A stretch of DNA of 48,502 bases from a virus (lineage: Duplodnaviria; Caudoviricetes). Numbering within the stretch: the first letter of the stretch is position 1; every line of letters starts with the position of its first letter. Below are positions 5,877-48,274 of this stretch, piece by piece. A program made the position numbers and the translations under genes. The stretch covers positions 1-48,502 of IMG/VR virus record IMGVR_UViG_3300033145_000424; one strand, written 5' to 3'. The notes beneath the pieces were generated by a model. That model did not search any database. It was given only the letters and a program-made list of their open reading frames with translations, and was not told the origin of the DNA.

Positions 5877-6197
5877 ATGAGGCAAAAAAGACAGCTGCAT
5901 AACCTTGTTATGCCTACAGACCTAAAAGACCATCTCGTTGAGATTTTTTACCAGAGAGGCGACCCTGCTTTTACATGCGGCTCAATAGGTCATTGGTGTG
6001 TAGAGAATTTATGTGGTGTTGAAGCACAAATTAACGAAGGCATGGATGATGAAGACAAGACTGCTCTTTTTGAAGACGGCGATGGATCATATCTTTTTAG
6101 CATGAGTTTTGAGCCGCCAGATTACGAGCTAGGCGGTATAGGTGACGGCTATTGGTATTTCGAGAAAGTTAAATACAAGCCTGTGATTGAGGCATAA
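5877..6197 (+). CDS. Cassette hypothetical protein
   Basis: Bounded by GTTATGCCT/AGGCATAAC; stop is the TAA of the core site. Confidence 0.7.
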   Translation: MRQKRQLHNLVMPTDLKDHLVEIFYQRGDPAFTCGSIGHWCVENLCGVEAQINEGMDDEDKTALFEDGDGSYLFSMSFEPPDYELGGIGDGYWYFEKVKYKPVIEA

Positions 6198-6302
6198 CGC
6201 CCAAAATAACTGGGCGCGTGACCAAGTTTAAATAAGAACGCGGTGCTTTATACGCTCCACGTTGATTTTGATTGTTATATTTACCACTGAGGTATATTTG
6301 AA

Positions 6303-6530
6303 ATGACAGAGCCAATGCATGAGGACTACATTGCTGCTGGACTTAGAAATCAAACAGCACAAGAGCAGCAGGAATTTAATTTATTTTGCATGCTAAAGCC
6401 GACAGTTAAGAGAGATGGCAATCAATGGTGTGTGATTTATGGTGAAGATAAGACAGGTATTGCGGGATTTGGTGGCTCACTACACCTTGCAATTATGGAT
6501 TTCAACGCTCAATGGTACAAAGAAATATAA
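6303..6530 (+). CDS. Cassette hypothetical protein
   Basis: Bounded by GTTATATTT/AAATATAAC. Confidence 0.7.
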   Translation: MTEPMHEDYIAAGLRNQTAQEQQEFNLFCMLKPTVKRDGNQWCVIYGEDKTGIAGFGGSLHLAIMDFNAQWYKEI

Positions 6531-6642
6531 CGTTGCAAATAAGGTGGCACACTCGGTGCCAGAATAGAAACGAAAGACTAACCTGCTCAGCTTGATTTGC
6601 TTTGTTAGGCTATTTAGAACACTGGAAACTAGGAATTAAACA

Positions 6643-6969
6643 ATGAGCCATGCAACTGGAAAAGTGAGATTTAATGATGGAACAGTAATGTTCTATGAGT
6701 ATAACGGCACCTGTGATGTTGTGTGCAATTGCCTCTACGACTCTTATAAAGAGATGCATAGCAATTGGCGCGACCAACCCAGCAATGAGTGTACATGCGG
6801 CAACGATGAAGAGGTTGAAATTGCCACTAATTATGCAGATGGATACTACTGGCCAGGAAAAGCTTGCCGCAAATGTAAGGCCATTACGCGTGGACTAGGA
6901 AGCGCAGTAGATGAATACATTTATGACGAAGAAACAGAGGGATTACCTGACTGGTGGGCTGAAGCCTAA
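6643..6969 (+). CDS. Cassette Cys-rich hypothetical protein
   Basis: Bounded by GTTAGGCT/AGCCTAAC; YEYNGT and CxxC motifs. Confidence 0.7.
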   Translation: MSHATGKVRFNDGTVMFYEYNGTCDVVCNCLYDSYKEMHSNWRDQPSNECTCGNDEEVEIATNYADGYYWPGKACRKCKAITRGLGSAVDEYIYDEETEGLPDWWAEA

Positions 6970-7080
6970 CGTTGCAAATGAGATGCACCCCCACAAATGT
7001 ATAGATAACCGCTGCGCTTTGCAGTGTCAGATTAATTGCCGTTGTTATAACGCGCTAACTACAGACTATAGGTAACCGAC

Positions 7081-7803
7081 ATGAAAGACGAATTGATAAA
7101 CTCCATTAGCAAAATGATACCGTGCGGCAACCGATTGGAGTTGCCAAAGGAAGAGCATTTTGCTAACTACGCACAAGTTAAAAAAGCGCTCTTGACCGCA
7201 GGTGGCAAGTATAAGAAATGTGGGTTTGAATTTACTGAAGATGCTGGAGAGGTTCAGGCTCGATTAATTGGCGGCGAAGTAATTAATGACAAAAAGAAAT
7301 ATCAATTTTTCGCCACGCCTCCACAATTAGCAGAGCAACTGGTTGAGCTGGCAGGGATACAAGAAAACCATACATGCTTGGAACCATCCGCAGGACAAGG
7401 CGCTATTTCTGATTTGATGCTAGAAAAAGCTGGGAGCTGTACTGTTGTTGAGCTGATGCCAGAAAACATTAAGGCGCTTACGCGAAAAGGATATGCCCCG
7501 ATTGAGTGCGACTTCTTAGCTGAAACATTAGGCTCGTTCGATAGAATCGTTGCTAACCCACCATTTACAAAAAACCAAGACATTGACCATATTCGGCACA
7601 TGCATTCAATGCTAAAGCCTGGTGGAAAGTTGGTTAGTGTTGCAAGCAAAAGCTGGACGTTTGGCACCCAGAAGAAGCAAGTTGCTTTTAGAGAATGGCT
7701 TGATGAGATTGGGGCCACCGTTACAGATGTGCAAGCAGGTGCTTTTAAAGAGAGCGGGACTAATGTGGCCTCGGTTATCGTAGAAGCTAGCCGTGCGTTA
7801 TAA
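7081..7803 (+). CDS. SAM-dependent (probable N6-adenine DNA) methyltransferase, cassette-borne
   Basis: FFATP, LEPSAGQG (motif I), NPPF (motif IV), FKESGT. Confidence 0.85.
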   Translation: MKDELINSISKMIPCGNRLELPKEEHFANYAQVKKALLTAGGKYKKCGFEFTEDAGEVQARLIGGEVINDKKKYQFFATPPQLAEQLVELAGIQENHTCLEPSAGQGAISDLMLEKAGSCTVVELMPENIKALTRKGYAPIECDFLAETLGSFDRIVANPPFTKNQDIDHIRHMHSMLKPGGKLVSVASKSWTFGTQKKQVAFREWLDEIGATVTDVQAGAFKESGTNVASVIVEASRAL

Positions 7804-7851
7804 TGTTGCATATTCAGCTGACCGCGTGAACAGAAAACAGGACTAGACACC

Positions 7852-8106
7852 ATGAATGAGTTAACTAAAACCGATGAACTTGAAAAGCCCACCACAGCAG
7901 CGGGTCAGGCTGGAATTGCCTTGTTAGGCGACACCCACTACATGTGTGAAATGTGTGGGGAAATTAATGAAAGAGGATGGACAAAAGAAGAGTCACTGGC
8001 TGAGGCAAAATCCAACGGGTTTGACCCAGAGGAAAACCCAGATGATTACGGAATTGTTTGTGACGATTGTTACAAAAAGACTCCGTGGGGAATGGCTGAC
8101 GCCTAA
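7852..8106 (+). CDS. Cassette Zn-finger-like protein starting inside attC
   Basis: CEMC and CDDC; RBS and ATG lie in the attC loop. Confidence 0.6.
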   Translation: MNELTKTDELEKPTTAAGQAGIALLGDTHYMCEMCGEINERGWTKEESLAEAKSNGFDPEENPDDYGIVCDDCYKKTPWGMADA

Positions 8107-8206
8107 CGTTCAAAATCACCCGGCGCACTGGGTGCTTAAATAAAACCGCTAAAGTTGACCCGCTCGGGTGAATTTTGCTTGTTAGGTGTGATCGGAGAGG
8201 TGATAT

Positions 8207-8470
8207 ATGGGCATGAACAAGGCTGACATATTAGCAGACTGTATAAAAGATAGGCTAGGAAACCCTGAAAACGAGGAGGAATACTTAAAGGCGGCTTCCT
8301 GGGTTGATGAGTTGCATGCATTGGCTGACCCTCAAGCTGCCGAATTACGCAACCTTGAGGGGTTATTAACAGAGGCGCGTACCCTGCTGGAAATTTACAG
8401 TAATAACGATGTTCTTGGGTGCGGCGGTGAAGAGATGATTAAACAGATAAATAACCATTTTGACACCTAA
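8207..8470 (+). CDS. Cassette hypothetical protein
   Basis: Bounded by GTTAGGTGT/ACACCTAAC; GGAG/GAGG RBS. Confidence 0.7.
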   Translation: MGMNKADILADCIKDRLGNPENEEEYLKAASWVDELHALADPQAAELRNLEGLLTEARTLLEIYSNNDVLGCGGEEMIKQINNHFDT

Positions 8471-8500
8471 CAGTGATTAGGCAGCTGGGAGCTATATAAC
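8465..8500 (-). other. attI-like site, type 1
   Basis: Minus-strand GTTATATAGCTCCCAGCTGCCTAATCACTGTTAG, 34/34 identical to 45857-45890. Confidence 0.7.
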
Positions 8501-8514
8501 ACTCAGAGGGTGGA

Positions 8515-8727
8515 GTGAAATACAGCTCTCTGAGCAAAACTCTAGGATATTTTATGGCCAAGAAAGTAAACCAATCTGACCCATGGAATATAGGGTATCT
8601 AGTCGCGTCTATGGGGTTTAAGCGTGTGCCGTCTGTTATTCCTATTGGCGCGACTGAAAGTGAGTATAGGGAGCGCTGGTTGGCTGGGTATGATGCATTC
8701 CATGAGCGGGGTGGTAAAGCTCATTGA
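8515..8727 (+). CDS. Hypothetical protein
   Basis: ORF ending WLAGYD; followed by a terminator. Confidence 0.5.
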   Translation: MKYSSLSKTLGYFMAKKVNQSDPWNIGYLVASMGFKRVPSVIPIGATESEYRERWLAGYDAFHERGGKAH

Positions 8728-9583: not shown

Positions 9584-9597
9584 ATTGGAGAAAGAAA

Positions 9598-10574: not shown

Positions 10575-10621
10575 CGGAAATGGCAACGGCGCACAGCTTG
10601 TATAGTGTGCGGCCAATAATC

Positions 10622-11152: not shown

Positions 11153-11155
11153 AGA

Positions 11156-11587
11156 TACTAACGATTTAAATCACCTGTGGCGCTGGGTGATAGAAAAAGC
11201 GCTAATGAAGAATACATCTGGTGGATTTATTTTGTTAGCTGCTGGAGGCTATTGTGAGTAAAGAATACGGAATTGTTGCTAATGTTACTGGAATTGACCG
11301 CTTTGTGCGCCAAGGGTCGAAAGCATGGCTGTCTGGTGGCACAGGTGGCGAAGGGTGGTACAAGTTCCAATGGATATGCCGCACCAGGGGAGGAAGATTG
11401 ATAGAAAAATGGATGCCTACAGAAAGACTCAGTAACTTCAGATGCGCCTGGATACCAAAGCACATATGGGCACTGGCCGATGGGCATCTTTATATGACTG
11501 GTAGCAAGGTAGAAATGGAAAAAAGAGCTGCTGATCTAAACGAATTTCACAGCACTCTCAAGCGCAGCTAACAGGGGATAGACAGCT
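11156..11587 (-). mobile_element. Integron-like array B (single cassette)
   Basis: attC-like 11156-11240; cassette ends GTTAGCTGC/GCAGCTAAC; attI-like CTAACAGGGGATAGACAGCT at 11568-11587. Confidence 0.8.
11254..11571 (+). CDS. Cassette hypothetical protein
   Basis: GGAGG RBS, GTG start; stop is the TAA of the core site. Confidence 0.7.
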   Translation: MSKEYGIVANVTGIDRFVRQGSKAWLSGGTGGEGWYKFQWICRTRGGRLIEKWMPTERLSNFRCAWIPKHIWALADGHLYMTGSKVEMEKRAADLNEFHSTLKRS

Positions 11588-11760
11588 CTCTGAGTGAAAT
11601 GGTTGGGCATTGCAGTATCTTGGCCAATGGCGAAATAGCCAATACGTGCCAATCTAACCTTAATGCTTGCCACCTTGCTCTGACTGGTGCTGGGCAGCAT
11701 ATTGATTATTTAGTTTAATAAGCATAAGCTTAAATCTATGGTTATCTCCTTATTGTGTAA

Positions 11761-13623
11761 ATGCACATGGTCAGATCGGTAATAAGAAGTATTATTCGGC
11801 CTGTGCTTCGAAGCGTTATATATATTACGCTGGCTAAATTGCTGCAGCTGCCCTATGCCGATGCTACCGGGAAACTGATATTCGGCAAATTCTTCGACAG
11901 TCGTGAAGATGACATCTGGCTGATTGATGCATGGGGAAAGCTGTTCCAGGTTCCTGGTGCGCTGAGTGCTCTTGTGCCTGGTGGTATTCCTGCGCTTGAG
12001 TATGCGCGGTGGGTGCAGAATCTTCTATCTAGCAGCGTAGCTGCCCCTCAGAATACAGGCGTAGGGGGAGACACCATCACGCCCCTTGGGGACGGGGCAT
12101 TTAGACTTAAGCGAGAGCCCGTGGGAAGTGGCGACTTTAGATGGGGGGATCTGGTGTCAGGCACTGCTGGCAATATTTACTGTGGGCAAATACAAGTCAG
12201 AAGAGTTACAGGCACGGGCACAATACATCTGGATGTAAATGACGACGGGGCCATTTTTATAGAATCAGAACTGGCTGGCGAATATAAAATCTTTTCCACT
12301 GCTGGAACGCAAGCCACTGCGTACAGGTTCATGGATGTAGCACTGGGTACAGTTGGCGATGAGGTAGAAATACATGTACCACAAATAGAGAACACAACAG
12401 GTCAAACCGATCCAACCATTCCAGGCGAGCACCAAATAAGAGACCCAGCCAATAGCCTATATGGTTTAGGCTGCTACACCACAGAGCTAGCCAACACAGT
12501 ATCAAGTGGCGTTGTTACTGAAGCTGTAGGTGCAACCCTATCGCCTTACCCTCAGTTTGTGCATTGGTATCAGAGTACTAATAGCCTTATTTATTCAAGA
12601 GATTTTTCTAGTTGGTCTGCTAGCGGAGGTGCACCAACGTTAGCGCAGGATCAAGTTGGAATTGATGGGTTGCCCGACACCGCTACGACCCTGGGTGATG
12701 ATAGTGCAGTGGTGGCACTTGGCAAGTTCATTGATACTACGGTTCCAAACGACAGTAATACGGAAACATATCATTTTTACATAGGGAAAGATAACGACGA
12801 AACAAGATTCCCAGAGGTTCAGCTTACTCTGCAAAATGGCACTCTCCAGCAGATTAAAACACAAGTAAATACTAAAACAGGAGCAAAAACAGATAGGACT
12901 GCAACAGGTACGGTCTCATCGTCGGTAGAGAGCTTTAATGCTAGTTTTTGGAAGCTCATTTTAAAAGTAGCGAATAACTCAACCGGGAACACTACTTGTA
13001 AGGTACAGGTGTTCCCGGCTATAACCACAACGTGGGGGACTGTTGAGTCATCCGCCACGGGAACAATCATTATCGACTGGGCACACCTAGGGTTAAATAG
13101 AGATTTTGCCTCCCCTCCTATACGGACAACTGGCGCAGCAGTATCACGCGATTCAACGCAGCTAAAACACCCAAGAGCAGGGTATTTTTATCAGGGTGCT
13201 GGAACGGCTGTTATGTGGGTGAGACCGAGGTTGGCCGCTGCTGTGTTGAGCGTGAAAGCGGGCTTACTATCCGTTCGCGACGGGAGTTCCACATCTGTTC
13301 TATATCTAGGAACCACTGAAGCGGGAAGGTTGGCTTCTTTTGACGGGACTAATACTGCGCATAGAGACCTAACTGCGTGGTCTGCTGATGATCTGATGCT
13401 CTTCTTTTCAAGCTGGGAAACAGGCGGCGACATAGATGCTGGCGGCAAGGTAGGAGGAGGAGCATTAGAAACAGACGCAACACCTCCAGCTTATGACGGC
13501 GACTGGCAAATATCAGGTGACAACATAGAGTTTTTCAAAGACTGCCCTCAACCCATGGTATTCGAGGGCCTTGGAATCTACAACCAAAAGCTAACCAACA
13601 CCCAAGTGGATGAACTGCCGTGA
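11761..13623 (+). CDS. Virion spike/fibre protein (head-spike-fibre-like, lectin-type C-terminus)
   Basis: STNSLIYSRDFSSW and SPPIRTTGAAVSRD motifs; G/T-rich beta composition. Confidence 0.6.
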   Translation: MHMVRSVIRSIIRPVLRSVIYITLAKLLQLPYADATGKLIFGKFFDSREDDIWLIDAWGKLFQVPGALSALVPGGIPALEYARWVQNLLSSSVAAPQNTGVGGDTITPLGDGAFRLKREPVGSGDFRWGDLVSGTAGNIYCGQIQVRRVTGTGTIHLDVNDDGAIFIESELAGEYKIFSTAGTQATAYRFMDVALGTVGDEVEIHVPQIENTTGQTDPTIPGEHQIRDPANSLYGLGCYTTELANTVSSGVVTEAVGATLSPYPQFVHWYQSTNSLIYSRDFSSWSASGGAPTLAQDQVGIDGLPDTATTLGDDSAVVALGKFIDTTVPNDSNTETYHFYIGKDNDETRFPEVQLTLQNGTLQQIKTQVNTKTGAKTDRTATGTVSSSVESFNASFWKLILKVANNSTGNTTCKVQVFPAITTTWGTVESSATGTIIIDWAHLGLNRDFASPPIRTTGAAVSRDSTQLKHPRAGYFYQGAGTAVMWVRPRLAAAVLSVKAGLLSVRDGSSTSVLYLGTTEAGRLASFDGTNTAHRDLTAWSADDLMLFFSSWETGGDIDAGGKVGGGALETDATPPAYDGDWQISGDNIEFFKDCPQPMVFEGLGIYNQKLTNTQVDELP

Positions 13624-14084
13624 TCTCTAAGGTCATCATAGCTGTTGCAGCAGTGCTAGGTGCTATCAGCTGCACATATCTTGTCAACGTAGATGACGTG
13701 TCTGTCTGCAATAAAAACCCTGAATCTGATGCATGTTGGCGGTTGGCTAGCAGTATTCACAGCAAGTTAAAGCAAAGCCATATACATATCTTGCAACCTC
13801 ATGAGAGTGCAGCAGAAGAATGGGTGAATCATTCTGACAGCCTATCTAAGGGTGAGCGCTTCAAAGGAGACTGTGACGATTTTGCTTCTACTGCAAATGC
13901 ATTTGGCAAATCTCTTGGCTTATCAGAGTCAAGAGTAAAATCGTACCTTGTAACTTTGGGTTATATGAAGCTGCACGCAGTAACAAGGGTTGGCAACTGG
14001 GTTGTGGACAATCGCAGGCCATTTGTCACCCATTGGGATAAGGCATCGAAAGAATGGATTGCATTCAATGAGCATTCACTATGA
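13620..14084 (+). CDS. Transglutaminase-like cysteine peptidase (BTLCP/C93-like) with signal peptide
   Basis: GDCDDFA...HAV...VVDN catalytic triad pattern. Confidence 0.7.
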   Translation: MISKVIIAVAAVLGAISCTYLVNVDDVSVCNKNPESDACWRLASSIHSKLKQSHIHILQPHESAAEEWVNHSDSLSKGERFKGDCDDFASTANAFGKSLGLSESRVKSYLVTLGYMKLHAVTRVGNWVVDNRRPFVTHWDKASKEWIAFNEHSL

Positions 14085-14557
14085 TCCGCAAGCTTGTCTA
14101 CATAGAGATGCCTGCTGATACTGATATCAAGCTACTGTCAGAAGAGTTACAGACTGATATTGCTAGCGTCTCTCCCAAATGGGTGGGCGATATGTGTGCT
14201 GATATGCGGGTAGTTGATGGTAAGAAAGTTATCCGCCCTAGGGTCACAACTGATGCGACTACCATCAAGGCATTAATTGCTAAACACGAACTACCTTGGC
14301 GTAACTTAGGAATGCGCAGTTGTAAAAAGGAACCTGCATTTGATGCTAATGGTCACCCGGTACTAATTGACGAAGGCCTGGAAACTGAGCATCAGCTTTA
14401 CGAACATGTCTACGACACCCCGTTTGATGTTGTCGAGCTGCAGAGGTATCTCACGCCTACTACAGATGAAGAGGGTAATGAGACCATCCGGCCACTAGGT
14501 TGCCCAGTGTATAAAGGCTCAAGTGATGATCTGGTAACGCTTGATGCGTACGGTTAA
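14081..14557 (+). CDS. Hypothetical protein
   Basis: ATGA-coupled ORF. Confidence 0.65.
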   Translation: MIRKLVYIEMPADTDIKLLSEELQTDIASVSPKWVGDMCADMRVVDGKKVIRPRVTTDATTIKALIAKHELPWRNLGMRSCKKEPAFDANGHPVLIDEGLETEHQLYEHVYDTPFDVVELQRYLTPTTDEEGNETIRPLGCPVYKGSSDDLVTLDAYG

Positions 14558-14581
14558 TAAATATTTAGGAGGACAGCAGAA

Positions 14582-14878
14582 ATGAGTTTTATCACAGGCG
14601 AATTTACAGGAACAGGGCAAAGCGATGAGGTAAGGGCTGGAGAGTTTGAGATAAATATGCATTTATCCGGAACTTTTTCAGCAACAATAGAACTGCAGCG
14701 GAAGTTCGGAAGCGGAGGAACATTTGTCACGTTAAGCGATGGAGAGTTTGTTGCCGCTGCGGACAAGGTTATCGGGGAGCCTGATGGTGACGCATTCTAT
14801 AGATTGAATTGCACGGCCTATACTTCAGGCACTGCTGCATATCGGCTGGGCGTTGCGTCTCATCAAGCGAGATCGTAA
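14582..14878 (+). CDS. Small beta-rich virion protein (spike-associated)
   Basis: SGTFSATIELQR...YRLNCTAYTSGT; similar to a segment of tail tube B. Confidence 0.5.
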   Translation: MSFITGEFTGTGQSDEVRAGEFEINMHLSGTFSATIELQRKFGSGGTFVTLSDGEFVAAADKVIGEPDGDAFYRLNCTAYTSGTAAYRLGVASHQARS

Positions 14879-14907
14879 TTATTGATTAGTGGTAGAGAGG
14901 CGAAACC

Positions 14908-15105
14908 ATGACCACAACAAACAACATTACAGGTAAGCTGATTAGAACCAAGGCAAACTCTAAGGAATTCAGAGATAACTTTTGCAGTATTATTTGGTCT
15001 AATCCCGGAGACAAGGGAAAAGACATCACCAGGAAAGGCATAGAGGCAGAGAGGGCACTTAAGCAGTTGCCTGATGTGAGCTATGAGGATGAGGGGATAA
15101 GGTAA
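14908..15105 (+). CDS. Hypothetical protein
   Basis: ORF with GAGG RBS. Confidence 0.6.
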   Translation: MTTTNNITGKLIRTKANSKEFRDNFCSIIWSNPGDKGKDITRKGIEAERALKQLPDVSYEDEGIR

Positions 15106-15136
15106 GGCTGATTAAGGTAATTTAAGGAGAGAGGCG

Positions 15137-15496
15137 ATGAAAAGGCGTAATTTTTTGAAAGGGCTGGCGGCGTTACCTATTGCTGCCGCATTACCAGCTT
15201 TGGCAAACAAACAAGATGCTGACCAGGATGAGTATGCGGTAACCCAGTGGGAGAAAGAAGGGCAATTTCAAGACGCAAAGACATTAGAGCGCCTTCAGAT
15301 GGAAATACTGGAGAAGATAGCTAACCCTCCTCTTGTCCTGGGGCCAGAGATGACAGCAACTGAGGTGTTAAGGCGAAGAGACTTGTGTGGTTTTGAGGCA
15401 AGCCAGAGAATGCAGACACATCAAGGGCTGTGTAAGTACACTCAAAAGTTATTTGATGATGAAGTTTATAGGCTGCTGACTAATGCCGGCTCCTAA
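15137..15496 (+). CDS. Twin-arginine-signal-like small protein with portal-like motifs
   Basis: MKRRNFLKGLAALP; NPPLV and MTATEV. Confidence 0.55.
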   Translation: MKRRNFLKGLAALPIAAALPALANKQDADQDEYAVTQWEKEGQFQDAKTLERLQMEILEKIANPPLVLGPEMTATEVLRRRDLCGFEASQRMQTHQGLCKYTQKLFDDEVYRLLTNAGS

Positions 15497-15950
15497 AGGA
15501 AATAAGTTCGCAGAAGGAAACGACGGAGGCCGGCCAACCAAATACACTCCAGAATTCATAGAGCTAGCTAAAGATTATCTTGAGAATTATGAGGAAAAGT
15601 ATGATGACGCAATCCCATCAATAGCAGGGCTTGCAGTGGCATCTAGCATCTCAAGAGAAACGCTAAATGTATGGAAAAGCGAGGAAGGGAAAGAAGAGTA
15701 TTCGGACATATTAGCTAAGTTATTGGCTACACAGGAAAATGTCCTGGTTAATAAGGGGCTAAAGAATGAGTTTAATTCCAATATTACCAAGCTGGTATTA
15801 GGGAAGCATGGGCACCATGAAAAGCACGATAATACTCACGGCGGGCCTAATGGCAAACCAATCGAAGTAGAAGACAAAACCAAATACGAGGGAAACGAGC
15901 TAGCCAGAAGGCTGGCTTTTGTGCTTTCTAAAGCGGTGAAAGATGAGTGA
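15483..15950 (+). CDS. terS: Terminase small subunit
   Basis: MPAPKGNKFA, GRPTKY, PSIAGLA, ITKLVL. Confidence 0.85.
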   Translation: MPAPKGNKFAEGNDGGRPTKYTPEFIELAKDYLENYEEKYDDAIPSIAGLAVASSISRETLNVWKSEEGKEEYSDILAKLLATQENVLVNKGLKNEFNSNITKLVLGKHGHHEKHDNTHGGPNGKPIEVEDKTKYEGNELARRLAFVLSKAVKDE

Positions 15951-16004
15951 TATATCTATAGTGAGCACTTGGAATTAATCGGTTGAATTGTAAGGAGTTT
16001 TAAA

Positions 16005-16112
16005 ATGGGCAATACGGCTACAATTTGGACTATTGTGTGGGTGGTTACCGGGTATCTGGCGGTTCCTTGTGGCGTCATATATGCCGTTGGTATGTCACGA
16101 GGGTGGTGGTAA
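16005..16112 (+). CDS. 35-aa single-pass membrane peptide
   Basis: AGGAG RBS; MGNTATIWTIVWVVTGYLAVPCGVIYAVGMSRGWW. Confidence 0.5.
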   Translation: MGNTATIWTIVWVVTGYLAVPCGVIYAVGMSRGWW

Positions 16113-16221
16113 GGCATAACGATTAGTTGAGAAGCGTGGTGCACGACAATGATTAAGTGCACCGCTACTGAAAACCACGTCTTTTCGAACGGCGTGTTAT
16201 GCAGAACCCCATACTACGGAG

Positions 16222-16458
16222 TTGATAATGATTAAATACTATTGCGATATTTGCGGCACCGAAATTACACCAGAGAACAAGAAGCCTGCGACATTTACAG
16301 GCAAAAAAGTAAGCACCCACGGCTTGCCAAAAAGAGAGCTGATGGTGCAGCTTGTTGAACATGACCCATGTGGCGACGAGGATGCATGTGTTTGCAAGTA
16401 TTGCATGATAGATGCAATTAAGAGCGCAGATGATCGCCCTATGGAAGGTGCTGCATAA
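16222..16458 (+). CDS. Cassette Zn-ribbon-like protein
   Basis: YCDICG and CKYC; cassette ends GTTATGCAG/CTGCATAAC. Confidence 0.65.
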   Translation: MIMIKYYCDICGTEITPENKKPATFTGKKVSTHGLPKRELMVQLVEHDPCGDEDACVCKYCMIDAIKSADDRPMEGAA

Positions 16459-16570
16459 CAGTTGCGAATAAGGTGGCACACTCGGTGCCAAAATAGAAAC
16501 GAAAGACTAACCTGCTCAGCTTGATTTGCCTGGTTAGGCGATTACTACCACTGAAGACTAGGAGTTAAAA

Positions 16571-16768
16571 ATGAGCGACTTTACAGCAAGAATGTTTGAA
16601 GAACATAGCCAGCTATCTACAAGAATTGAGAAGCTGAAGGCTTTTATTGTTTCTGATAAATACGACACGTTGCCAGAAGTTGATCAGGCTGATTTAAAAA
16701 AACAGCTGAAGCACATGGAAGGCTATTTTAAGGTATTAAGTTGCCGCGTTTCTCGTCAGTGTGGGTGA
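16571..16768 (+). CDS. crAss001_48-like small phage protein
   Basis: RM.EE..L..RI.KL..FI...Q..LK.Q...M..Y..L..R pattern. Confidence 0.6.
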   Translation: MSDFTARMFEEHSQLSTRIEKLKAFIVSDKYDTLPEVDQADLKKQLKHMEGYFKVLSCRVSRQCG

Positions 16769-16946
16769 AGAAATGAATATTGAATTATTACTTGTGATTA
16801 TGGCTTGGATGGTGGCGACCTCTATTGTGTTTCGTATCAGAGATGTATGCAACTCTGACTGCCAATATGAATTTTTGAGAGCCACATGGGAGCCTTACGC
16901 AATATCCATCGGGCTACTGATGATGGCAATAGGGCATTACGCCTAA
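16761..16946 (+). CDS. Small two-TM membrane protein (second ORF of the cassette)
   Basis: Hydrophobic segments; stop in the core site. Confidence 0.55.
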   Translation: MGEEMNIELLLVIMAWMVATSIVFRIRDVCNSDCQYEFLRATWEPYAISIGLLMMAIGHYA

Positions 16947-17019
16947 CGACCGCAATTAACCGGCACGAGTGAAGCGAGTGTCGGGTTGAATTGCCGTGTT
17001 AGGCCAAGCTTTATTTTAC

Positions 17020-17048
17020 TTGACCTGACCGATAAGTAAGACTAGATT
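17020..17048 (+). promoter_or_regulatory. Cassette-internal sigma70 promoter
   Basis: TTGACC-17-TAGATT. Confidence 0.6.
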
Positions 17049-17061
17049 TGAAACTGTGGAG

Positions 17062-17156
17062 TGATACCCACTACAAGTGAGTTAAACAAGGCGTACGTCT
17101 TGGCTAGGTGGGATCTCACTCCCCCGTATCAACTGGCCAGGGTGTACGCCTTTTTT
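17062..17156 (+). ncRNA. c4-like antisense RNA module 3 (cassette-borne)
   Basis: Stem AAGGCGTAC/GTACGCCTT plus U-tract; internal CTCACT and GTATCA complement upstream AGTGAG and TGATAC. Confidence 0.65.
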
Positions 17157-17170
17157 ATTGGGATAGGATT

Positions 17171-17383
17171 ATGCTAAATGTTAACAAACAAAAAGGGCAA
17201 ATTGACGGCGAGCTTATTGGGATTCTTATCGGGCTGGCGCTCTTTGTGGCCAGTGTTGCCGCTTGGTTTACCCATATTTTTACTTGCCTCTCTGAAGAAG
17301 CTTGGGGTTTCCTCATTGCTGGCGCGATTATGTTCCCGATTGCGATAGTTCACGGCTTTGGCATATGGTTTGGTTTCTTCTGA
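17171..17383 (+). CDS. Membrane protein with prepilin-like leader
   Basis: MLNVNKQKG|QIDGE followed by hydrophobic helices. Confidence 0.65.
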   Translation: MLNVNKQKGQIDGELIGILIGLALFVASVAAWFTHIFTCLSEEAWGFLIAGAIMFPIAIVHGFGIWFGFF

Positions 17384-17518
17384 AGTGAAGGCCGCACAGA
17401 TAGTAGATTGTGCGGCCTAATGTGGGCAATAAGTTGCAGCCCACCTAGATTGAACAAACCGCAGCGACCTCGCTGTCAATTTGATTGCCCTTGTTAGACG
17501 GCGAGAACGGAGAAACTA

Positions 17519-17770
17519 ATGTTTGCAAAACTATATGAAACAGAAATTGGACAGATTCTAGTTAAGAGAGATGAGGGGGATGATGGGCCAGAGATGAGGC
17601 TTTTCTTTAAACCGGAAAAGTTAGGTGTGTGTTCATTTGCTTTTTCATACTCAGATGATGATGAAGGTTGGGATAAGCTGGACAAAGCATTTGACGACAT
17701 GAATGAAAAAGATGCCACAGAGATGACAAAAAACATCTTTAGTAACGTTACTCAGAAGACTTTTGAATAA
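17519..17770 (+). CDS. Cassette hypothetical protein
   Basis: GGAG RBS; between attC sites. Confidence 0.7.
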   Translation: MFAKLYETEIGQILVKRDEGDDGPEMRLFFKPEKLGVCSFAFSYSDDDEGWDKLDKAFDDMNEKDATEMTKNIFSNVTQKTFE

Positions 17771-17891
17771 GAGCCGCCTAACGTGAAAATAACCTGGCAC
17801 GTATAGATGACTGGGCAAAACGCGGTGACGGAATGCTCAGGTTGATTTTGCTTGTTAGGCGATTTGATGAACCGAAAACTAGGAGATTAAA

Positions 17892-18323
17892 ATGGGAATG
17901 GTATTTACTGTTGATGAGATTAAACACTATCTTGGTGGCCACAAAACTATAGAGGCCGCTATTGATAACATAAGTGGGCAAGCTATTGCTTCATGTATCC
18001 CTATTACAAATGTTGACAGCCTGAACTTCAAGAAAAACGATGCCAATTTAGAGAAATATGAAACGATGATTGGTATGAGCAAACAAAAGAGCTATCAGCG
18101 CACCTTGCACCAGAAAAGCGGAGGCAAAGAAGGGCGGAAATGGATGGCGTTATCCCCAAAATGGATTGATGGCCATAAGCTAGAAACAGAGTTTGAGATT
18201 GCATATTGGGTAAATTATGGGGATGACAATACCTACGGTTGGTTTTCTGTTGAGCAGATTCAACAATGGTTTGCCAACCCTGGAATACAGCTACACGAGC
18301 TTGGTGGCAGAAAAGAACGGTAG
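17892..18323 (+). CDS. Cassette hypothetical protein
   Basis: AGGAG RBS; between attC sites. Confidence 0.7.
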   Translation: MGMVFTVDEIKHYLGGHKTIEAAIDNISGQAIASCIPITNVDSLNFKKNDANLEKYETMIGMSKQKSYQRTLHQKSGGKEGRKWMALSPKWIDGHKLETEFEIAYWVNYGDDNTYGWFSVEQIQQWFANPGIQLHELGGRKER

Positions 18324-18414
18324 AAGCCTAATGTGGCGCTTAACCTGCGCGAGCGCAGCGAGTGTCAGCGTTGAAGCGCATTGTTAGGCCGAACCTACAC
18401 AGGACTATAAAACT

Positions 18415-19131
18415 ATGACAACAAGACTATTACAAGGCGATTGCCTAGAACGCATGAAAGAGATAGAAAGCGGCACCGTTGATATGGTGCTGGCTGACCC
18501 GCCTTACGGCACTACATCGTGCAAATGGGATAGCGTGATACCGCTGGAACCAATGTGGGAACAGCTAAAAAGGGTGGTTAAGCCCAATGGTGCTATCGTA
18601 ATGACGGCAAGCCAACCATTTACCACTACACTGATAAGCAGTAATTTGAAGATGTTTAAATATTGCTGGGTATGGGAGAAGAGCAAGGCAACAGGGCATG
18701 CGCTATGCAAAAAAAGACCGATGAAGGCGCATGAGGATATAGCTATATTTTGCGGCGGTGCGGAACCATACGAGCCACAAATGACGGAAGGCAAAGCCTA
18801 TAAGTCAAAGCTAGGGAGAAAGGAAAGCACGGAGTTCAGCACGGGAAAAGAGCGGAATGATAACACTGGCTATAGATACCCAAGGAGCGTGCAATATTTC
18901 AAAACCAGCGAGTCAGAGCGAAACACCCACCGGCACCCAACACAGAAGCCATTACCACTAATGGAATACCTGATCAGAACTTACACGGACGAGTGTGAAA
19001 CGGTGCTAGATTTCACAATGGGAAGCGGAACTACGGGCGTAGCCTGCAAGAATCTAAACCGACACTTTATTGGAATAGAACTCGATGAAGCATACTTTAA
19101 GATTGCACAGGATAGGATTAGTGCGGCCTAA
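18415..19131 (+). CDS. N4/N6 DNA methyltransferase (beta class), cassette-borne
   Basis: DPPY, HPTQKP, DFTMGSGTT. Confidence 0.92.
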   Translation: MTTRLLQGDCLERMKEIESGTVDMVLADPPYGTTSCKWDSVIPLEPMWEQLKRVVKPNGAIVMTASQPFTTTLISSNLKMFKYCWVWEKSKATGHALCKKRPMKAHEDIAIFCGGAEPYEPQMTEGKAYKSKLGRKESTEFSTGKERNDNTGYRYPRSVQYFKTSESERNTHRHPTQKPLPLMEYLIRTYTDECETVLDFTMGSGTTGVACKNLNRHFIGIELDEAYFKIAQDRISAA

Positions 19132-19175
19132 CGATTGAGTTAACCAGCTTGCGGGAATTAAAGGAGTATGCCAAA

Positions 19176-19436
19176 ATGAAACACAGTAGTGGATGCAGCG
19201 AATTTTTGGATGAAAAGCACCACTGTAGCAAGTCTGCGTTGGACGACTTGTTAGTTGTTTACTCGGTGCTTATTTGTGACTGCATATTTGAATCGAGCTT
19301 TGCAACCGTTAGCTTACACCGCACTAAGCGCGGAGCAGTAAAGGCGATGAACAGGCTTAAAAAAGAATACTTTTACGATTACCCTTTTTATGACTACATG
19401 CGCCTGAGATACGGCAAGCAAGAAATAGGAGAGTGA
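19176..19436 (+). CDS. Cassette hypothetical protein starting inside attC
   Basis: AAGGAG and ATG within the attC loop. Confidence 0.55.
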   Translation: MKHSSGCSEFLDEKHHCSKSALDDLLVVYSVLICDCIFESSFATVSLHRTKRGAVKAMNRLKKEYFYDYPFYDYMRLRYGKQEIGE

Positions 19437-19651
19437 ATATGGAAACATTAGGCGACCGGCTTAGAGTGTATAGAACTAAAGCAGGACTTACGCAGGATAA
19501 ATTAGGTGAATTATCTGGCTCTAACCAGGCATGTATTCAGAAGATAGAAAACGGACGCTCTGAGAACCCACGCTGCCTTAGGGATATTAGCAAAGTGCTT
19601 GGTGTGCGCCCAGGGTGGCTGCATTATGGTGAAGGTGAGGCAGACAACTAA
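19433..19651 (+). CDS. XRE/Cro-family HTH regulator, cassette-borne
   Basis: LGDRLRVYR..AGLTQDKL...IQKIENG...LGVRPGWL. Confidence 0.88.
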   Translation: MNMETLGDRLRVYRTKAGLTQDKLGELSGSNQACIQKIENGRSENPRCLRDISKVLGVRPGWLHYGEGEADN

Positions 19652-19737
19652 CAGGGGATAGACAGCTATGTGCTATCTATTTCCACCCATGCAACATGAA
19701 ATGCAGCACATCGCCGTCTAATCACAATTAGGAAATT

Positions 19738-21705
19738 ATGCTACAAGAACTCTTGCAAGCAGTTGATGGCCTCGATGAAGCAGGAAAAGAGGTGGTTAAT
19801 GCTGCCCTTAAAGAAACAGAGGATATGCGGTGGGTGCCAAACCCCGGGCCGCAGACTGAGGCGTTCTTCTGTGAGGCGGATGAATTGTTCTACGGGGGGT
19901 GTGTGTCTGGGGACACTGAATATTACACCCGGGCAGGCTGGAAACGGATAGATCAATTCGACGGGAAGGGCGAGATAGCTCAGTGGCATAAGGAAGGAGG
20001 CCATTTCACATTCGTAGAGCCATCAGGGTTCACAAAAGAGCCCTGTGCTGAAATGTGGCACTTTACAGGCTCAAAAGTATCAATGATGCTATCAGATGAG
20101 CATAGGATGGCGCTGTATGATGCGGATGGTGGGTTCATAGTAAAAACCGCAGCAGAAGTTGCTGGAACACACTGTGCTTACTCAGTGCCAACTACTACGG
20201 ATAACGAGGGGCTTGATGGCGTTGAGGTTTATAGAAAGCCAGTAGTGGCTAAATATTGCTTTAAAGTACAAACATCGTTCTGGTTGGCGAGGCATAACGG
20301 GTTTGTATTTGTAACCGGGAACTCTGCTGGAGGAGGAAAGTCGTCACTGGCCGTGGGTCTTGCTCTGATCTCGCATGAGAACTCTCTAATCTTGAGGCGG
20401 ATACGCGATGACGCAAAGAAGCTGGCGGAAAAAGAGCTGCTAAACCGCATATTAGGAGGGGATCGAAACGGGTGGAATGGGCAGGATCTGCTTTATAGGG
20501 GTGACAAGCAACGGATAATGTTTGGTGGCTGCGCCAATGAGGATGATAAGCAAAGATATAAAGGCGACCCAAACGACCTGATTGTATTCGATGAATTGGG
20601 TGATTTCATGGAGTCGCAGTATGAGTTTATAACGGGGTGGAATCGCTCAGCTACGCCGGGACAGCGCTGTAGGGTAGTTGCTACTGGCAATCCGCCAACA
20701 ACAGCAGAGGGCCTGTGGGTGATCAGTCGGTTTGCCCCTTGGCTTGATCCAAAGCACGAAAACCCAGCAAAATCAGGTGAGATTAGATGGTTTCTGCGAG
20801 ATGAGGCGGGCGAGGAAAAGGAGGTTGAAAGTGCTGGTCCATATCAGTGTGGAGATAGAGAGGTTTATGCCAAGTCACGTTGCTTCATAAGAGCTAAGCT
20901 AGAGGATAATCCAGACTTGATGGATGATGGCCAGTATGAAACAAACCTGAATAATATGAGGAAAGATCTTCGGGACGCGTATCGAGACGGAAAGTTTGAA
21001 GCATCAATGAATGACCATGAAAACCAGTTAATCCCAACAGAATGGGTGCTGGCAGCGCAGAATAGATGGGCGCCAGAGCCGCCAGCTAATGTGCCGATGT
21101 GTTCAATCGGCGTTGATGTTGGAGCTGGCAATGACCCGCATGCGATAACCCAGAGGTTTGATAACTGGTTTAGTAAGCCTGAACTAGTTGAAAGCGAGCC
21201 AATAGAGCATGGCGGAGACTGCGCAGGCAAAGTATTAGCGAGGCGAAGAGATAATGCGGTTATTATTATTGATTGCGGGGGTGGGTTTGGTGGTTCTGCC
21301 TACAAGCATTTTGTTGATAATCATATACCTGCTATAGCTTATAAGGGTGGCAAAGGAACAAAAGAGCGAACAAAGCACGCTCATATCCCATTCAAGAACA
21401 CACGCACTGCATCACACTGGAAGCTGATGGAGGCGTTAGACCCTGATCAGCCAGGTGGGTCTAACATTGCGTTAGCTCCAGGCAATACGATGCTGGCTGA
21501 GCTAACTGCCATAAGGTTCTATAATAAAAACAATATGATACAATTAGAAGACAAGGAATCAGCAAAGAAACGTACAGGATTAGGGTTTCATGAGTCAGAC
21601 TCTTTGGTCATGGCTCATAGTTCGGGCAACACGGTTGCCAATATACAGGGCGGTTGGGGGCGGAGCCGCACACCTAAGGTCATCATGCACAAAAGGAGAA
21701 GATAA
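19738..21705 (+). CDS. terL: Terminase large subunit containing an intein
   Basis: After intein removal FYGGSAGGGKS (Walker A), IVFDE (Walker B), ATGNPP, IGVDV nuclease motif. Confidence 0.93.
   Translation: MLQELLQAVDGLDEAGKEVVNAALKETEDMRWVPNPGPQTEAFFCEADELFYGGCVSGDTEYYTRAGWKRIDQFDGKGEIAQWHKEGGHFTFVEPSGFTKEPCAEMWHFTGSKVSMMLSDEHRMALYDADGGFIVKTAAEVAGTHCAYSVPTTTDNEGLDGVEVYRKPVVAKYCFKVQTSFWLARHNGFVFVTGNSAGGGKSSLAVGLALISHENSLILRRIRDDAKKLAEKELLNRILGGDRNGWNGQDLLYRGDKQRIMFGGCANEDDKQRYKGDPNDLIVFDELGDFMESQYEFITGWNRSATPGQRCRVVATGNPPTTAEGLWVISRFAPWLDPKHENPAKSGEIRWFLRDEAGEEKEVESAGPYQCGDREVYAKSRCFIRAKLEDNPDLMDDGQYETNLNNMRKDLRDAYRDGKFEASMNDHENQLIPTEWVLAAQNRWAPEPPANVPMCSIGVDVGAGNDPHAITQRFDNWFSKPELVESEPIEHGGDCAGKVLARRRDNAVIIIDCGGGFGGSAYKHFVDNHIPAIAYKGGKGTKERTKHAHIPFKNTRTASHWKLMEALDPDQPGGSNIALAPGNTMLAELTAIRFYNKNNMIQLEDKESAKKRTGLGFHESDSLVMAHSSGNTVANIQGGWGRSRTPKVIMHKRRR
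19900..20322 (+). other. Mini-intein (141 aa) inserted in the TerL Walker A motif
   Basis: Starts CVSGDTEYYT; block B SDEHRM; ends YCFKV...FVTGN followed by Ser. Confidence 0.9.
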
Positions 21706-45734: not shown

Positions 45735-45886
45735 AGTTCATCCCCAGGAATCTTCATATGTTTAATTATGCCCTCTTTTTGGCATTGTTCAAGTTTGAGC
45801 TGTATTTGCATAGTTTTTGGCCTCCTCAATAGCTGTATTTCTCCCACCCCTTCGGAGTTATATAGCTCCCAGCTGCCTAATCACTG

Positions 45887-46081
45887 TTAGCCTTCAAGGT
45901 GAGCCGCATGGCAGGCTGTAATCTCGCTTACATTAATCATCAGCCCTGGCTCAACGTAAAAGTGATTTAAGGCGGTTGGGTCTTTCATCGCTCCATCAAG
46001 CATATCCTGCACAAACTTGTCTTTATCGGTGACATTGATGGTCATTTTATGTCCGTTTTTAAAACTAATCGTGTATTCCAT
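45887..46081 (-). CDS. Cassette hypothetical protein
   Basis: Cassette ends GTTAGCCTTC/GAAGGCTAAC. Confidence 0.7.
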   Translation of the reverse strand: MEYTISFKNGHKMTINVTDKDKFVQDMLDGAMKDPTALNHFYVEPGLMINVSEITACHAAHLEG

Positions 46082-46176
46082 AGCTCACCCCAGAAGGCTA
46101 ACAACGTAAATCAACGCGGAGCATTTCATCATTAGCGTTTTGTTTGGGCACCGAACGTGCCCGGTTATTTACAACA

Positions 46177-46584
46177 TTATGCCTCAAATCCGTACCTCTC
46201 ATTAAGGCGCTTGTCATATCGCGCTTTCGCCTCCTTATCTCCTTCAAAAGTTCCAGCATAGAAATCATTGAATTCCTCAATGGTCATGTTCTCCTTATTC
46301 CATTCCCATGATACAAGTCGATGCCCTACGCGATCTTCCATTAACGTTCTCAGCTGGCTTCTTCTGCCTCCCGTCTTGTAATCTTGCGTCTCATGGCTTT
46401 TGTCTTCATTGGGGAGTTCTTCAGGCCACTCCCATTTATTTAGCATGCAAGCCCATTGGGCTAGCGTTACATCATCTTGATTATTAATCACCTCAAGATC
46501 TTCAGGCATAACAAGGCAATTTAACGCCGACCCACTACTGTGGCGCTTGGGTTCACTTTCTGTGGTTTCGTTCGATTTAGTCAT
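46177..46584 (-). CDS. Cassette hypothetical protein starting inside attC
   Basis: AAGGAG and ATG in the attC loop. Confidence 0.65.
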   Translation of the reverse strand: MTKSNETTESEPKRHSSGSALNCLVMPEDLEVINNQDDVTLAQWACMLNKWEWPEELPNEDKSHETQDYKTGGRRSQLRTLMEDRVGHRLVSWEWNKENMTIEEFNDFYAGTFEGDKEAKARYDKRLNERYGFEA

Positions 46585-46632
46585 GGTATTCAGCTCCTTG
46601 TTTATCTGCCCGTGGTCGGGTTAATTGCAACG

Positions 46633-46923
46633 TTAGGCGGCATACAATTTCTGCACGAATGCCCGCCGTTTCTGCTTTGCTCTTTGGGTGGCTGATACTC
46701 TTTCTTGCACCCGCTTAATACAATTCTGCATACCTGCCTGCATGGGTAAAATCTTAACCTCTGCCCACGTTCTGAATATGTCGTACCACTTCCACCATTT
46801 CGGAACCTCAAGCGCCCACTCATACTCATACTCATACCGATATGGATGATCAACTAGGGTTACACAATAGCTCTCGTATGCTCTGGTGCTGATTGAATCA
46901 TAATAAGGGTAATTCACAAACAT
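46633..46923 (-). CDS. Cassette hypothetical protein
   Basis: ATG at 46923; AGGAGG RBS overlaps the core site. Confidence 0.6.
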   Translation of the reverse strand: MFVNYPYYDSISTRAYESYCVTLVDHPYRYEYEYEWALEVPKWWKWYDIFRTWAEVKILPMQAGMQNCIKRVQERVSATQRAKQKRRAFVQKLYAA

Positions 46924-47009
46924 CCTGCCTCCTAACAACGGCAATTAATCTGACACTGAAATTTCAGCGCCTTTTTAGGTATCTGTGGTGGTGCAGCTTA
47001 TTGCCCACA

Positions 47010-47315
47010 TTAGCCTTCTACCGTTTTCTTGATATCGGCTATTCTCTTCTTTAAATAGATAATCTCGCTTTGCTGTTCAGCAAATAGCTGCACTTTATCT
47101 CTATCCAGAAATGTCAGGATGTCGGTTATCTCAACCCCCATTATCTGAAGTTTCTTTTTAACGTCCAGCAATGCTTTGGTTTCCATGCCGAATATCATTT
47201 CAATATCATCTGCACTGGGTCTGTTCATGGTTGCTCTCTCAGGTTTCGTGCAAATACTGCACTGTTGGCGAAACTTTAGATGCTCGCAAATAACATCTGG
47301 TCTTCCTGGCCTCAT
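47010..47315 (-). CDS. Cassette hypothetical protein
   Basis: GAGG RBS; stop in the core site. Confidence 0.65.
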   Translation of the reverse strand: MRPGRPDVICEHLKFRQQCSICTKPERATMNRPSADDIEMIFGMETKALLDVKKKLQIMGVEITDILTFLDRDKVQLFAEQQSEIIYLKKRIADIKKTVEG

Positions 47316-47420
47316 ACATCACCTCTCCGCTCACGGCTAACAAGTAAAATCTAGCTGACGGCCTAAGCTTTGGCACTTTTAATCACTACCCAGTGCCGCA
47401 CCTAATTTTCACATTATGCT

Positions 47421-47906
47421 TCAAAACGGTACGCCGTTGTTCTTATCCGAATAGGTGATAAGGTCACGTAGTTCTCCTATTTCGCGCTCATACATTGATC
47501 TAATTGCCTTTTCTTTTTTGCTTGCAGGGCGCTCACCAATGCTGGCTTCGTATTGACCGCTCAGCTCTACTGAATTATCAAGAGCGTCTTTCATCGCGGC
47601 GTTCATTCGCCACCAAGCGCTCTGCTTAACCAACTGAACCACCTCGCCACCATCCTCGGTTACAGCAGCTAATACATCTCCAGCGAAAGCAATTAGGACT
47701 TTTTCCCAGTCATCCCATTCGCCAAAGTCACCCTCAAGGTTGTTAGAGGCGTTCGTGCCTTCACCATAGGCGGCCTCTTTGCATTTATAAATCCTGCTTT
47801 TTGCCATCTCGCTAACAGTAGGCAGGCCAAGCATAACAAGCGCATCAACCTGATTCGCTACTGTGGTGCTTGATTCAATTTTGTCACTCTTCATGTCCAT
47901 GTCCAT
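47421..47906 (-). CDS. Cassette hypothetical protein starting inside attC
   Basis: AAGGA and ATG in the attC loop. Confidence 0.6.
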   Translation of the reverse strand: MDMDMKSDKIESSTTVANQVDALVMLGLPTVSEMAKSRIYKCKEAAYGEGTNASNNLEGDFGEWDDWEKVLIAFAGDVLAAVTEDGGEVVQLVKQSAWWRMNAAMKDALDNSVELSGQYEASIGERPASKKEKAIRSMYEREIGELRDLITYSDKNNGVPF

Positions 47907-47959
47907 GTCTTTTCCTTAAATATCAGCTGTTTAAACCCGCTCTCAGGTTATGCTTGTCG

Positions 47960-48154
47960 TTATAACGCTGAGTCATTTATATAAAAATCATCAGCCGTGA
48001 AATACTCATTCTGCGCCAGCCGCCATTCTTCGGCCTCTTTGCGCGTGTCGAATGAGGTTATCAAGTGCTCGTGACCTTCGTCTTCCATTAGCACTGCTTT
48101 CCGGATTACTTGAAAGCGTTTTGTTTCATCTAAGTTCTTCCAGCTAGTATCCAT
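47960..48154 (-). CDS. Cassette hypothetical protein
   Basis: Cassette ends GTTATAACGC/GCGTTATAAC; likely start MDTSW. Confidence 0.6.
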   Translation of the reverse strand: MDTSWKNLDETKRFQVIRKAVLMEDEGHEHLITSFDTRKEAEEWRLAQNEYFTADDFYINDSAL

Positions 48155-48274
48155 AATGCACCCCGCGTTATAACAAAATAAATCCACCAGACTGCTCCAA
48201 CATTAGCGCCTTTATTTAACCACCCAGCGCAGCAGGTGATTTACAACGTTATCGGAATTGCCAATTCCTTCTTC

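Follow-up and report, generated by a model that had tools for sequence, protein, structure and literature searches.

Inverted attC polarity in the cassette arrays of a complete phage genome

The genome of phage IMGVR_UViG_3300033145_000424 carries integron-type cassettes whose genes, as judged from sequence comparison with bacterial attC sites, are read on the attC bottom strand, and we consider the inverted polarity put forward in the original prediction for these arrays to be confirmed. The canonical arrangement, in which the gene lies on the top strand with attC downstream of it, was not found here. Instead, attC sites occur upstream of the genes in four arrays, each of which ends in an attI-like site on its downstream side.

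Four cassette arrays in a complete phage genome

The window, meaning the whole stretch of DNA that was analyzed, corresponds to the whole virus record of 48,502 bases, which has direct terminal repeats and is 100% complete. Judging from its PHROG matches (terminase subunits, head-tail adaptor, major head, tail and internal virion proteins, SSB, and an exonuclease) the phage is podovirus-like, and the closest capsid match in a cultured phage was only 25% identical. A search of the whole 48.5-kb complete genome for the tyrosine recombinase family PF00589 returned no match, indicating that there is no intI in the phage, and there were no matches to Rfam. A 620-residue ORF (11761-13623) was considered as a recombinase and rejected; it resembles viral Laminin_G/tail-fibre-like proteins.

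Reading of the sequence combined with scanning identified 19 attC-like sites in four arrays (Table 1): A1 (5 sites), A2 (1 site) and A3 (7 sites, located between the genes for the terminase small (terS) and large (terL) subunits) on the plus strand, and A4 (6 sites) on the minus strand. Our detector searched for hairpins with two extrahelical bases, and at its score cut-off (≥12.5) it found nine sites in the phage genome, compared with a single site in 30 second-order Markov-shuffled genomes. The R''/R' cores (RYYYAAC...GTTRRRY) and the L''/L' boxes that together form a single-strand hairpin are present, with 18 of the 19 sites matching a bacterial attC model, and attC quality, as given by covariance model (CM) scores, showed no trend from one end of an array to the other. 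A CALIN is defined by two or more attC sites within 4 kb on the same strand and no intI near them, and A1, A3 and A4 (5, 7 and 6 sites) are arrays of this kind; A2 has a single attC site.

When the sequence was cut between the TAA and the C of each core we obtained 20 cassettes of 289-834 bp, totaling 8,872 bp or 18% of the genome, each laid out as attC, leader and gene and ending at the TAA of the next core. At 16 of 23 junctions this TAA serves as an in-frame stop codon, and once three array-start junctions are left out the count is the same as the 16 of 20 cassettes originally predicted to use the core TAA as stop codon. Two ORFs are found together at 16571-16946 (16571-16768 with 16761-16946) and at 19176-19651 (19176-19436 with the HTH gene 19433-19651), and 16222-16458 is a further cassette region listed among those carrying two ORFs. 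The cargo is phage-like and has phage homologs; it includes two methyltransferase-like proteins, one HTH protein, and crAss001_48-like and other phage families. A blastn search of the arrays against cultured phages found a methyltransferase among the best 40 of 228 records and otherwise nothing useful; phi297 has a homolog of one cassette gene and no attC match. There was no attC in the flanks of relatives of the terminase small subunit (2 loci) or of the major capsid protein (12 loci), nor in the IMG/VR records of two relatives searched over their whole length, and no close relative carrying arrays was found among the relatives identified through these two proteins.

Outside the arrays we observed a 52-residue ORF (9598-9756, +) with a prepilin-type N-terminal methylation motif (PF07963, E 6e-9), which sits directly 5' of an SPFH/Band 7 gene (9753-10574) and is possibly a phage pilin mimic, and a transglutaminase-like cysteine peptidase (13620-14084, +; PF06035, E 1.5e-5, below the curated cut-off). 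Related 30-nt palindromic repeats (80% identity) follow gene ends at 10585-10614 and 17388-17417 (+), with a weaker copy at about 9100-9130, and may represent an operator, promoter or terminator. A long AT-rich intergenic hairpin between genes of the SSB region (2862-2955) is not an attC according to the CM.

Table 1. Predicted attC sites, terminal attI-like sites and the 5' end of array A1 (positions in the window; CM scores in bits)
Feature	Position	Strand	CM score	Remarks
5' end of array A1	5892..5913	+		putative original target left arm 5892-5902 plus collapsed attC 5897-5913
attC, array A1	6192..6280	+	29.8	bottom strand = +
attC, array A1	6525..6610	+		near-copy of 16453-16539, downstream leader in common
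attC, array A1	6964..7050	+	17.6	upstream of methyltransferase-like ORF (7081-7803)
long attC, array A1	7798..7929	+		with start of ORF 7852-8106; missed by CM R1, 3' arm matched by R2
attC, array A1	8101..8187	+	35.8	
terminal attI-like site of A1, long type	8465..8527	+		core 8465-8487, TAA-6 nt-TTA, then conserved small hairpin
attC, single-cassette array A2	11156..11240	+	19.7	
terminal attI-like site of A2, short type	11566..11588	+		hairpin-less, matching core
attC, first of array A3	16114..16202	+	42.2	5-nt spacer
attC, array A3	16453..16539	+	21.8	
attC, array A3, site of the original prediction	16941..17004	+	32.5	64 nt; bottom strand = gene-sense; 10.5 bits on -
attC, array A3	17415..17499	+	24.6	
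attC, array A3	17776..17860	+	30.9	
attC, array A3	18326..18389	+	16.8	upstream of N6/N4 DNA methyltransferase (18415-19131)
long attC, array A3	19126..19256	+	38.7	with SD and ATG of ORF 19176-19436
terminal attI-like site of A3, short type	19646..19668	+		its TAA stops the HTH gene
attC, first of array A4	48168..48254	-	30.0	bottom strand = -
long attC, array A4	47831..47965	-	32.2	with SD and ATG of ORF 47906-47421
attC, array A4	47335..47419	-	20.6	
attC, array A4	46930..47015	-	17.6	
long attC, array A4	46506..46638	-	19.2	with SD and ATG of ORF 46584-46177; homolog keeps arm-encoded peptide
attC, array A4	46096..46182	-	14.7	
terminal attI-like site of A4, long type	45830..45892	-		core 45892-45870; same small hairpin as at 8465

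Polarity of the attC sites and the genes that own them

The first extrahelical G in L'' is known to set the strand choice by IntI, and on the bottom strand a G usually follows the AAC of R' (PMC2727003). As a bacterial control we used 80 IntI loci, in 29 of which the detector found 91 sites. The bottom strand was the intI strand in 88 of these 91 sites, and crude ORF calling placed their flanking genes in canonical orientation at 59 sites, inverted at 4 and mixed at 19, with no flanking gene at the other 9. A covariance model (R1) was built from 28 bottom strands, comprising 25 of 34 non-redundant canonical sites of no more than 100 nt (those that aligned), one Shewanella plasmid site and two TJE1 sites. 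With R1, every phage site but the long one at 7798 was matched on the gene-sense strand (18 of 19; 14.7-42.2 bits, E ≤ 0.19), and the best antisense match had 10.5 bits. Four control records gave 22 matches, 3 of them to sequences used in training, and all 22 run antisense to their arrays. The original prediction had proposed this comparison and had regarded covariance-model hits on the gene-sense strand as evidence against itself, which presumed a model of top strands; since R1 was built on bottom strands, the gene-sense matches confirm the inverted polarity.

Simpler markers pointed to the same strand. Bottom-strand scoring favored the gene-sense strand in 19/19 sites, and with Watson-Crick pairs only and no G/T bonus it did so in 18, with one tie. 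The strand asymmetry said to recur from site to site was borne out when, as had been suggested, the sites were folded and their extrahelical bases mapped: these fall on the gene-sense strand in 18-19 of the 19. An extrahelical G followed by T was called in 10/19 sites (neutral register), with other bases or registers in the remainder. A G follows the AAC/AAT core in 18/19 sites on the gene-sense strand and 0/19 on the antisense strand, the corresponding figures for bacterial sites being 78/91 on the bottom and 2/91 on the top strand, and AA follows AAC in 16/19 antisense and 0/19 sense strands. Six of the 19 5' (R') cores, and no 3' core, have AAT in place of AAC, a change that yields a G.T pair only if the gene-sense strand folds and that therefore fits gene-sense folding. 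Stems of the gene-sense strand have 19 G.T versus 1 A.C in a register that rewards wobble pairs and 7 G.T versus 0 A.C in the neutral register. Folding energy was a weak marker, with the gene-sense strand more stable in 15/19 sites, several of them by under 0.5 kcal/mol. Since the CM matches, the bacterial controls and these simple markers agree, we take the coding strand to be the attC bottom strand. In both genome arms (A1-A3 on +, A4 on -) the sites are oriented with transcription and not with one fixed strand; in chromosomal integrons, orientation is tied to replication (PMC5371416).

The site for which inversion was originally predicted (16941-17004) folds into a hairpin on both strands (z -3.83 plus, -3.55 minus), and its minus-strand sequence had been quoted exactly. 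Crossover is predicted to occur between 16946 and 16947. It had been likened to a classic 59-base element; it is indeed an attC-type site, but not quite a classic one, as its R''-L'' spacer is 6 nt rather than 5.

In the predicted cassettes each attC is shown to belong to its downstream gene. Four of the 19 sites are long (131-135 nt) and hold the ATG of the downstream ORF together with a purine-rich leader and 76-81 nt of coding sequence, so that a crossover at the 3' end would behead those genes. ORF 46584-46177 has three homologs, one of which has retained both the peptide encoded in the arm and the identical last residues; homolog searches with two other long-site ORFs found none for one and one relative for the other, the C-terminus of which is common up to the core and the attC peptide not clearly so. 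The closest attC pair (6525 and 16453) has a similarity of 0.52 downstream and 0.08 upstream, and this near-identical attC plus leader is present in two arrays with different genes. A Mantel-type comparison of attC similarity with flank similarity over all pairs was not significant (p 0.15 upstream, 0.11 downstream), this test being without power in the phage and in bacteria alike. No exact partner core was found within 1.5 kb upstream of the first site in any of the four arrays.

Two further features give no direction. Comparing the outer 4 nt of the cores, we found that a 3' core agrees with the 5' core that follows it in 17/19 cases, all four terminal sites included, and that a site's own two ends agree in 4/19 (permutation mean 3.6, maximum 13 in 200,000 permutations). 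This core matching is the mark left by cassette recombination and is compatible with either polarity, as is the stop in the core of 16 of the 20 cassettes.

Terminal sites and chromosomal relatives of the attC family

The attI-like site was originally predicted to lie always at the 3' end of the array, and we found that a hairpin-less site closes 4/4 arrays, the 5' core of each matching the last attC of its array (4/4). The A4 terminal site has 85% identity over 54 nt with 8460-8513. A small hairpin lies 3' of the core in both long terminal sites (8487-8527, +; 45870-45830, -), with inner stems that differ, and the short terminal sites resemble deletion derivatives of the long ones. The comparison with attI is based on these four related terminal sites, on the agreement of their cores, and on a geometry that was verified at a single bacterial junction. 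None of 401 gammaproteobacterial genomes contained the exact terminal-site pattern, and exact terminal-site and attC-arm patterns gave 0, 0, 4 and 0 stretches in viral_contigs, none of the four with a convincing site or array.

At the 5' end of A1 the left arm 5892-5902 is a 10/11 inverted repeat of 8477-8487, and the element 5897-5913 consists of two cores with 3 nt between them; we infer that this element may be the decayed attC of the oldest A1 cassette. Excising all A1 cassettes in silico between TAA and C brings 5892-5902 next to 8471-8487, producing an 11-6-11 inverted repeat with 10/11 matches. Among 846 TAAC/TAAT positions one scores 10, and the two that score 11 are the terminal arms themselves. 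This reconstruction of an empty target works for A1 only, as A2-A4 give 3, 3 and 4 of 11. A sigma-70 scan of 5400-20000 found 20 sites versus 25.1 expected, and so no enrichment; a Pc in the usual place would point antisense to the phage cassette genes.

The R''-L'' spacer is 6 nt in 13/19 phage sites versus 1/91 bacterial controls (5 nt in 90/91). A sequence model made from 14 of the 19 phage sites, with 29 candidates scored per gammaproteobacterial genome, found at least 14 matches in at least 12 of 151 genomes. Nine of these 14 bacterial look-alikes also have the 6-nt spacer, making it a subfamily trait, and the other five loci are 5-nt by the detector. Eight of the nine 6-nt bacterial sites are canonical by flanking ORFs; among the loci with a 6-nt-family site, L127 (L127/L132) has a canonical one in the first cassette beside a full IntI (455.6 bits, cut-off 265), and its attI junction, TAA-6 nt-TTA, has the same geometry as the phage terminal sites. 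The ninth 6-nt site (L129, genome G114) is inverted, with a second site upstream and matching cores, in a neighborhood of phage type (repressor-like ORF, DNA methyltransferase, PAPS reductase). The genome G114 has, in addition, a canonical site of the 6-nt family and two IntI above the cut-off. A single attC family is in this way linked to canonical use in chromosomes as well as to inverted use in phage DNA. The region of L129 (L150:7680-8123, in G114:C113) looks like a prophage, in which a small ORF and the PAPS reductase are preceded by at least two inverted attC. Another locus, L144, has one weak 'inverted' candidate with a score of 8.

Proposed mechanism, alternatives and known systems

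We consider it probable that these are integron cassettes with attC flipped relative to the gene, in a phage system that uses host IntI in trans. The most likely source of the integron integrase would be a gammaproteobacterial host that has attC sites of its own in the 6-nt-spacer family. The enzyme would fold the gene-sense strand and cut between AA and C, in the core located at the upstream gene's 3' end, with excision by attC x attC recombination and insertion at the terminal site, so that new cassettes would join the 3' end of the phage transcription unit in sense. Arrays would, from this geometry, grow at the promoter-distal end, and transcription from phage promoters further upstream would run through the cassettes. 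Recombination of the top strand in a classical integron leaves cassettes oriented against Pc, and there is strong avoidance of L-box events that would put attI downstream (PMC4792948); with attC flipped within the circle, a downstream attI would be reached with ordinary chemistry. A bacterial cassette landing in the phage would be antisense, and a phage cassette in a bacterial integron would be antisense to Pc. Weighing against this reading are the missing trend in attC quality along the arrays, the empty targets of A2-A4 that could not be rebuilt, the non-significant Mantel-type comparison, the failure to find array-bearing relatives or the terminal-site pattern in the bacterial genomes and viral_contigs searched, the single junction behind the attI match, and the inverted P12002L_attC1, which IntI1 did not recombine (PMC9892861).

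The same inverted cassettes might instead be served by an integrase from a co-infecting phage, prophage or satellite, with the pool circulating among phages only. The phage homologs of the cargo and the 0 of 401 bacterial genomes with the terminal-site pattern would suit such a pool, and one viral contig (L011) does encode a full-length IntI relative (37% identity); however, the detector found no attC in the 17 kb around this IntI, and the phage attC family and attI geometry occur at a chromosomal integron, making this source of integrase unlikely in our view. The IntI relative lies at L011:7974-8987 on a 42-kb contig, between a DNA methylase-like gene and replication genes. We give even less weight to the arrays being fossils, once inserted by IntI and now fixed, with hairpins that persist as gene junctions (stop, ribosome-binding site, weak terminator). 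A genome without integrase, one collapsed attC (5897-5913), three failed empty-site reconstructions and six of 19 R' cores with AAT rather than AAC are what decay would leave, but the core matching is still perfect in 17/19 cases, sites that have diverged retain their extrahelical bases, AAT forms a G.T pair on the strand that folds, and a near-identical attC plus leader occurs in two arrays with different genes.

Recombination of the antisense strand or at the R'' box, the gene traveling with its downstream attC and the inversion amounting to shifted extrahelical bases only, seems very improbable. Top strands do recombine at low frequency (PMC4792948), and the stop-in-core rule and core complementarity fit both polarities, but this would cut four ORFs from their start codons, and in all four arrays the last gene would lack an attC and the first attC would lack a partner core; furthermore, gene-sense bottom strands of phage PH101 gave R'-box junctions (PMC9892861). 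That the hairpins are phage repeats or terminators merely resembling attC is scarcely credible: their intergenic position speaks for it and nothing else we found does, against CM scores of up to 42 bits, a null rate of 1 in 30 shuffled genomes, core matching far beyond permutation, and the same attC family adjoining IntI in bacteria.

Returning to flipped cassettes moved by host IntI, we suggest tentatively, as an idea we would not yet rely on, that phages may keep their own mirror-image cassette pool, borrowing the host integrase and attC family with the site flipped. The flipped design would let a phage use the bacterial integrase with its cassettes kept apart from those of the bacterium. 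If this is true, phage operons would express phage cassettes that stay silent in host integrons, host cassettes, of which many are anti-phage, would be silent when landing in the phage, and polarity alone would separate two gene pools sharing one recombinase. A lytic phage would gain a programmable accessory genome (18% of its DNA). The arrays themselves point to a concrete, site-specific way for phages to become mosaic with no recombinase of their own. attC strand selection is understood as a device for orienting genes correctly behind Pc, and 20 reversed cassettes indicate that this chemistry can also serve a different layout of transcription. Anti-phage cassettes abound in chromosomal integrons (10.1101/2024.07.02.601686), and a mirrored pool would therefore let phages shuffle cassettes without expressing those genes. 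In annotation pipelines where an attC is given the ORFs upstream of it on the top strand (PMC7370490), inverted cassettes would be mis-assigned or missed.

Qi et al. 2023 described CALINs in the virulent phages TJE1, PH101, P12002L and MW202573, and reported that IntI1 recombines five of six tested phage sites, bottom strands better than top and with R-R' junctions, whereas P12002L_attC1 failed to recombine (PMC9892861). PH101 attC1 and attC2 were among the sites whose bottom strands IntI1 recombined better than the top (PMC9892861). When we mapped these phages, sites were inverted in PH101 (4/4, the tested attC1 and attC2 being on the strand of the annotated genes), MW202573 (5/5) and P12002L (attC1), and canonical in TJE1 (3/3). 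The preferred strand of PH101 thus maps as gene-sense, and there is in this way indirect experimental support for gene-sense recombination in another phage; the text of the paper, in which PH101 is called typical, says nothing of bottom-strand genes (PMC9892861). A duplicated site in PH101 has about 55 nt downstream in common and nothing upstream. In MW202573 a methyltransferase frame seems, by eye, to start inside the upstream attC (L110:2619-3186), before the annotated start at 2794. Three other phages with CALINs according to Qi et al. (Vibrio phages jenny 12G5 and H188 and Shewanella phage 3/49) had no R1 match in the stretches examined. By our mapping the inverted design is not unique to the present phage, as it is also predicted in PH101, MW202573, P12002L and the prophage-like region L129. 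In the mostly open-access literature (including PMC8352920, PMC7370490 and PMC11389934) we found no description of systematically inverted cassettes.

The published phage CALINs (PMC9892861) are like the arrays described here in being attC clusters without integrase, often with DNA methyltransferase cargo, and differ in having few sites each, compared with 19 in four arrays with terminal attI-like sites. Classical integrons (PMC2727003, PMC4792948) have in common with our phage the R''/L''/L'/R' layout, the AAC cleavage triplet, cassette sizes, the stop in the core, and the extrahelical G and T 6 nt apart in the 3' arm of the bottom strand; here, unlike in classical integrons, the gene is on the bottom strand, attC is upstream of the gene and the attI-like site downstream, there is no intI and no Pc was recognised, and the R''-L'' spacer is mostly 6 nt. 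Orientation within the integron is likewise unusual in the Treponema reverse integrons and the inverted integrase group (PMC4909258, PMC7691350, PMC4889954), but in the Treponema integrons it is intI that is turned around with respect to the array, with the stop codon in R'' downstream of the gene, whereas here attC is flipped relative to the gene. We rejected an identity with the Treponema type, as there is no intI and the polarity differs at the level of attC. There is also a likeness to attG sites, double-stranded dif-like cores outside integrons at which IntI inserts cassettes (bioRxiv 10.1101/2022.09.11.507474), and we count the 11-6-11 inverted repeat of the rebuilt A1 target toward it; attG sites, however, are scattered GWT targets, and here four related terminal sites each anchor an array. 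What this genome adds to these systems is the 20-cassette scale, the four terminal attI-like sites, a rebuilt empty target, and the link of attC and attI to a chromosomal family.
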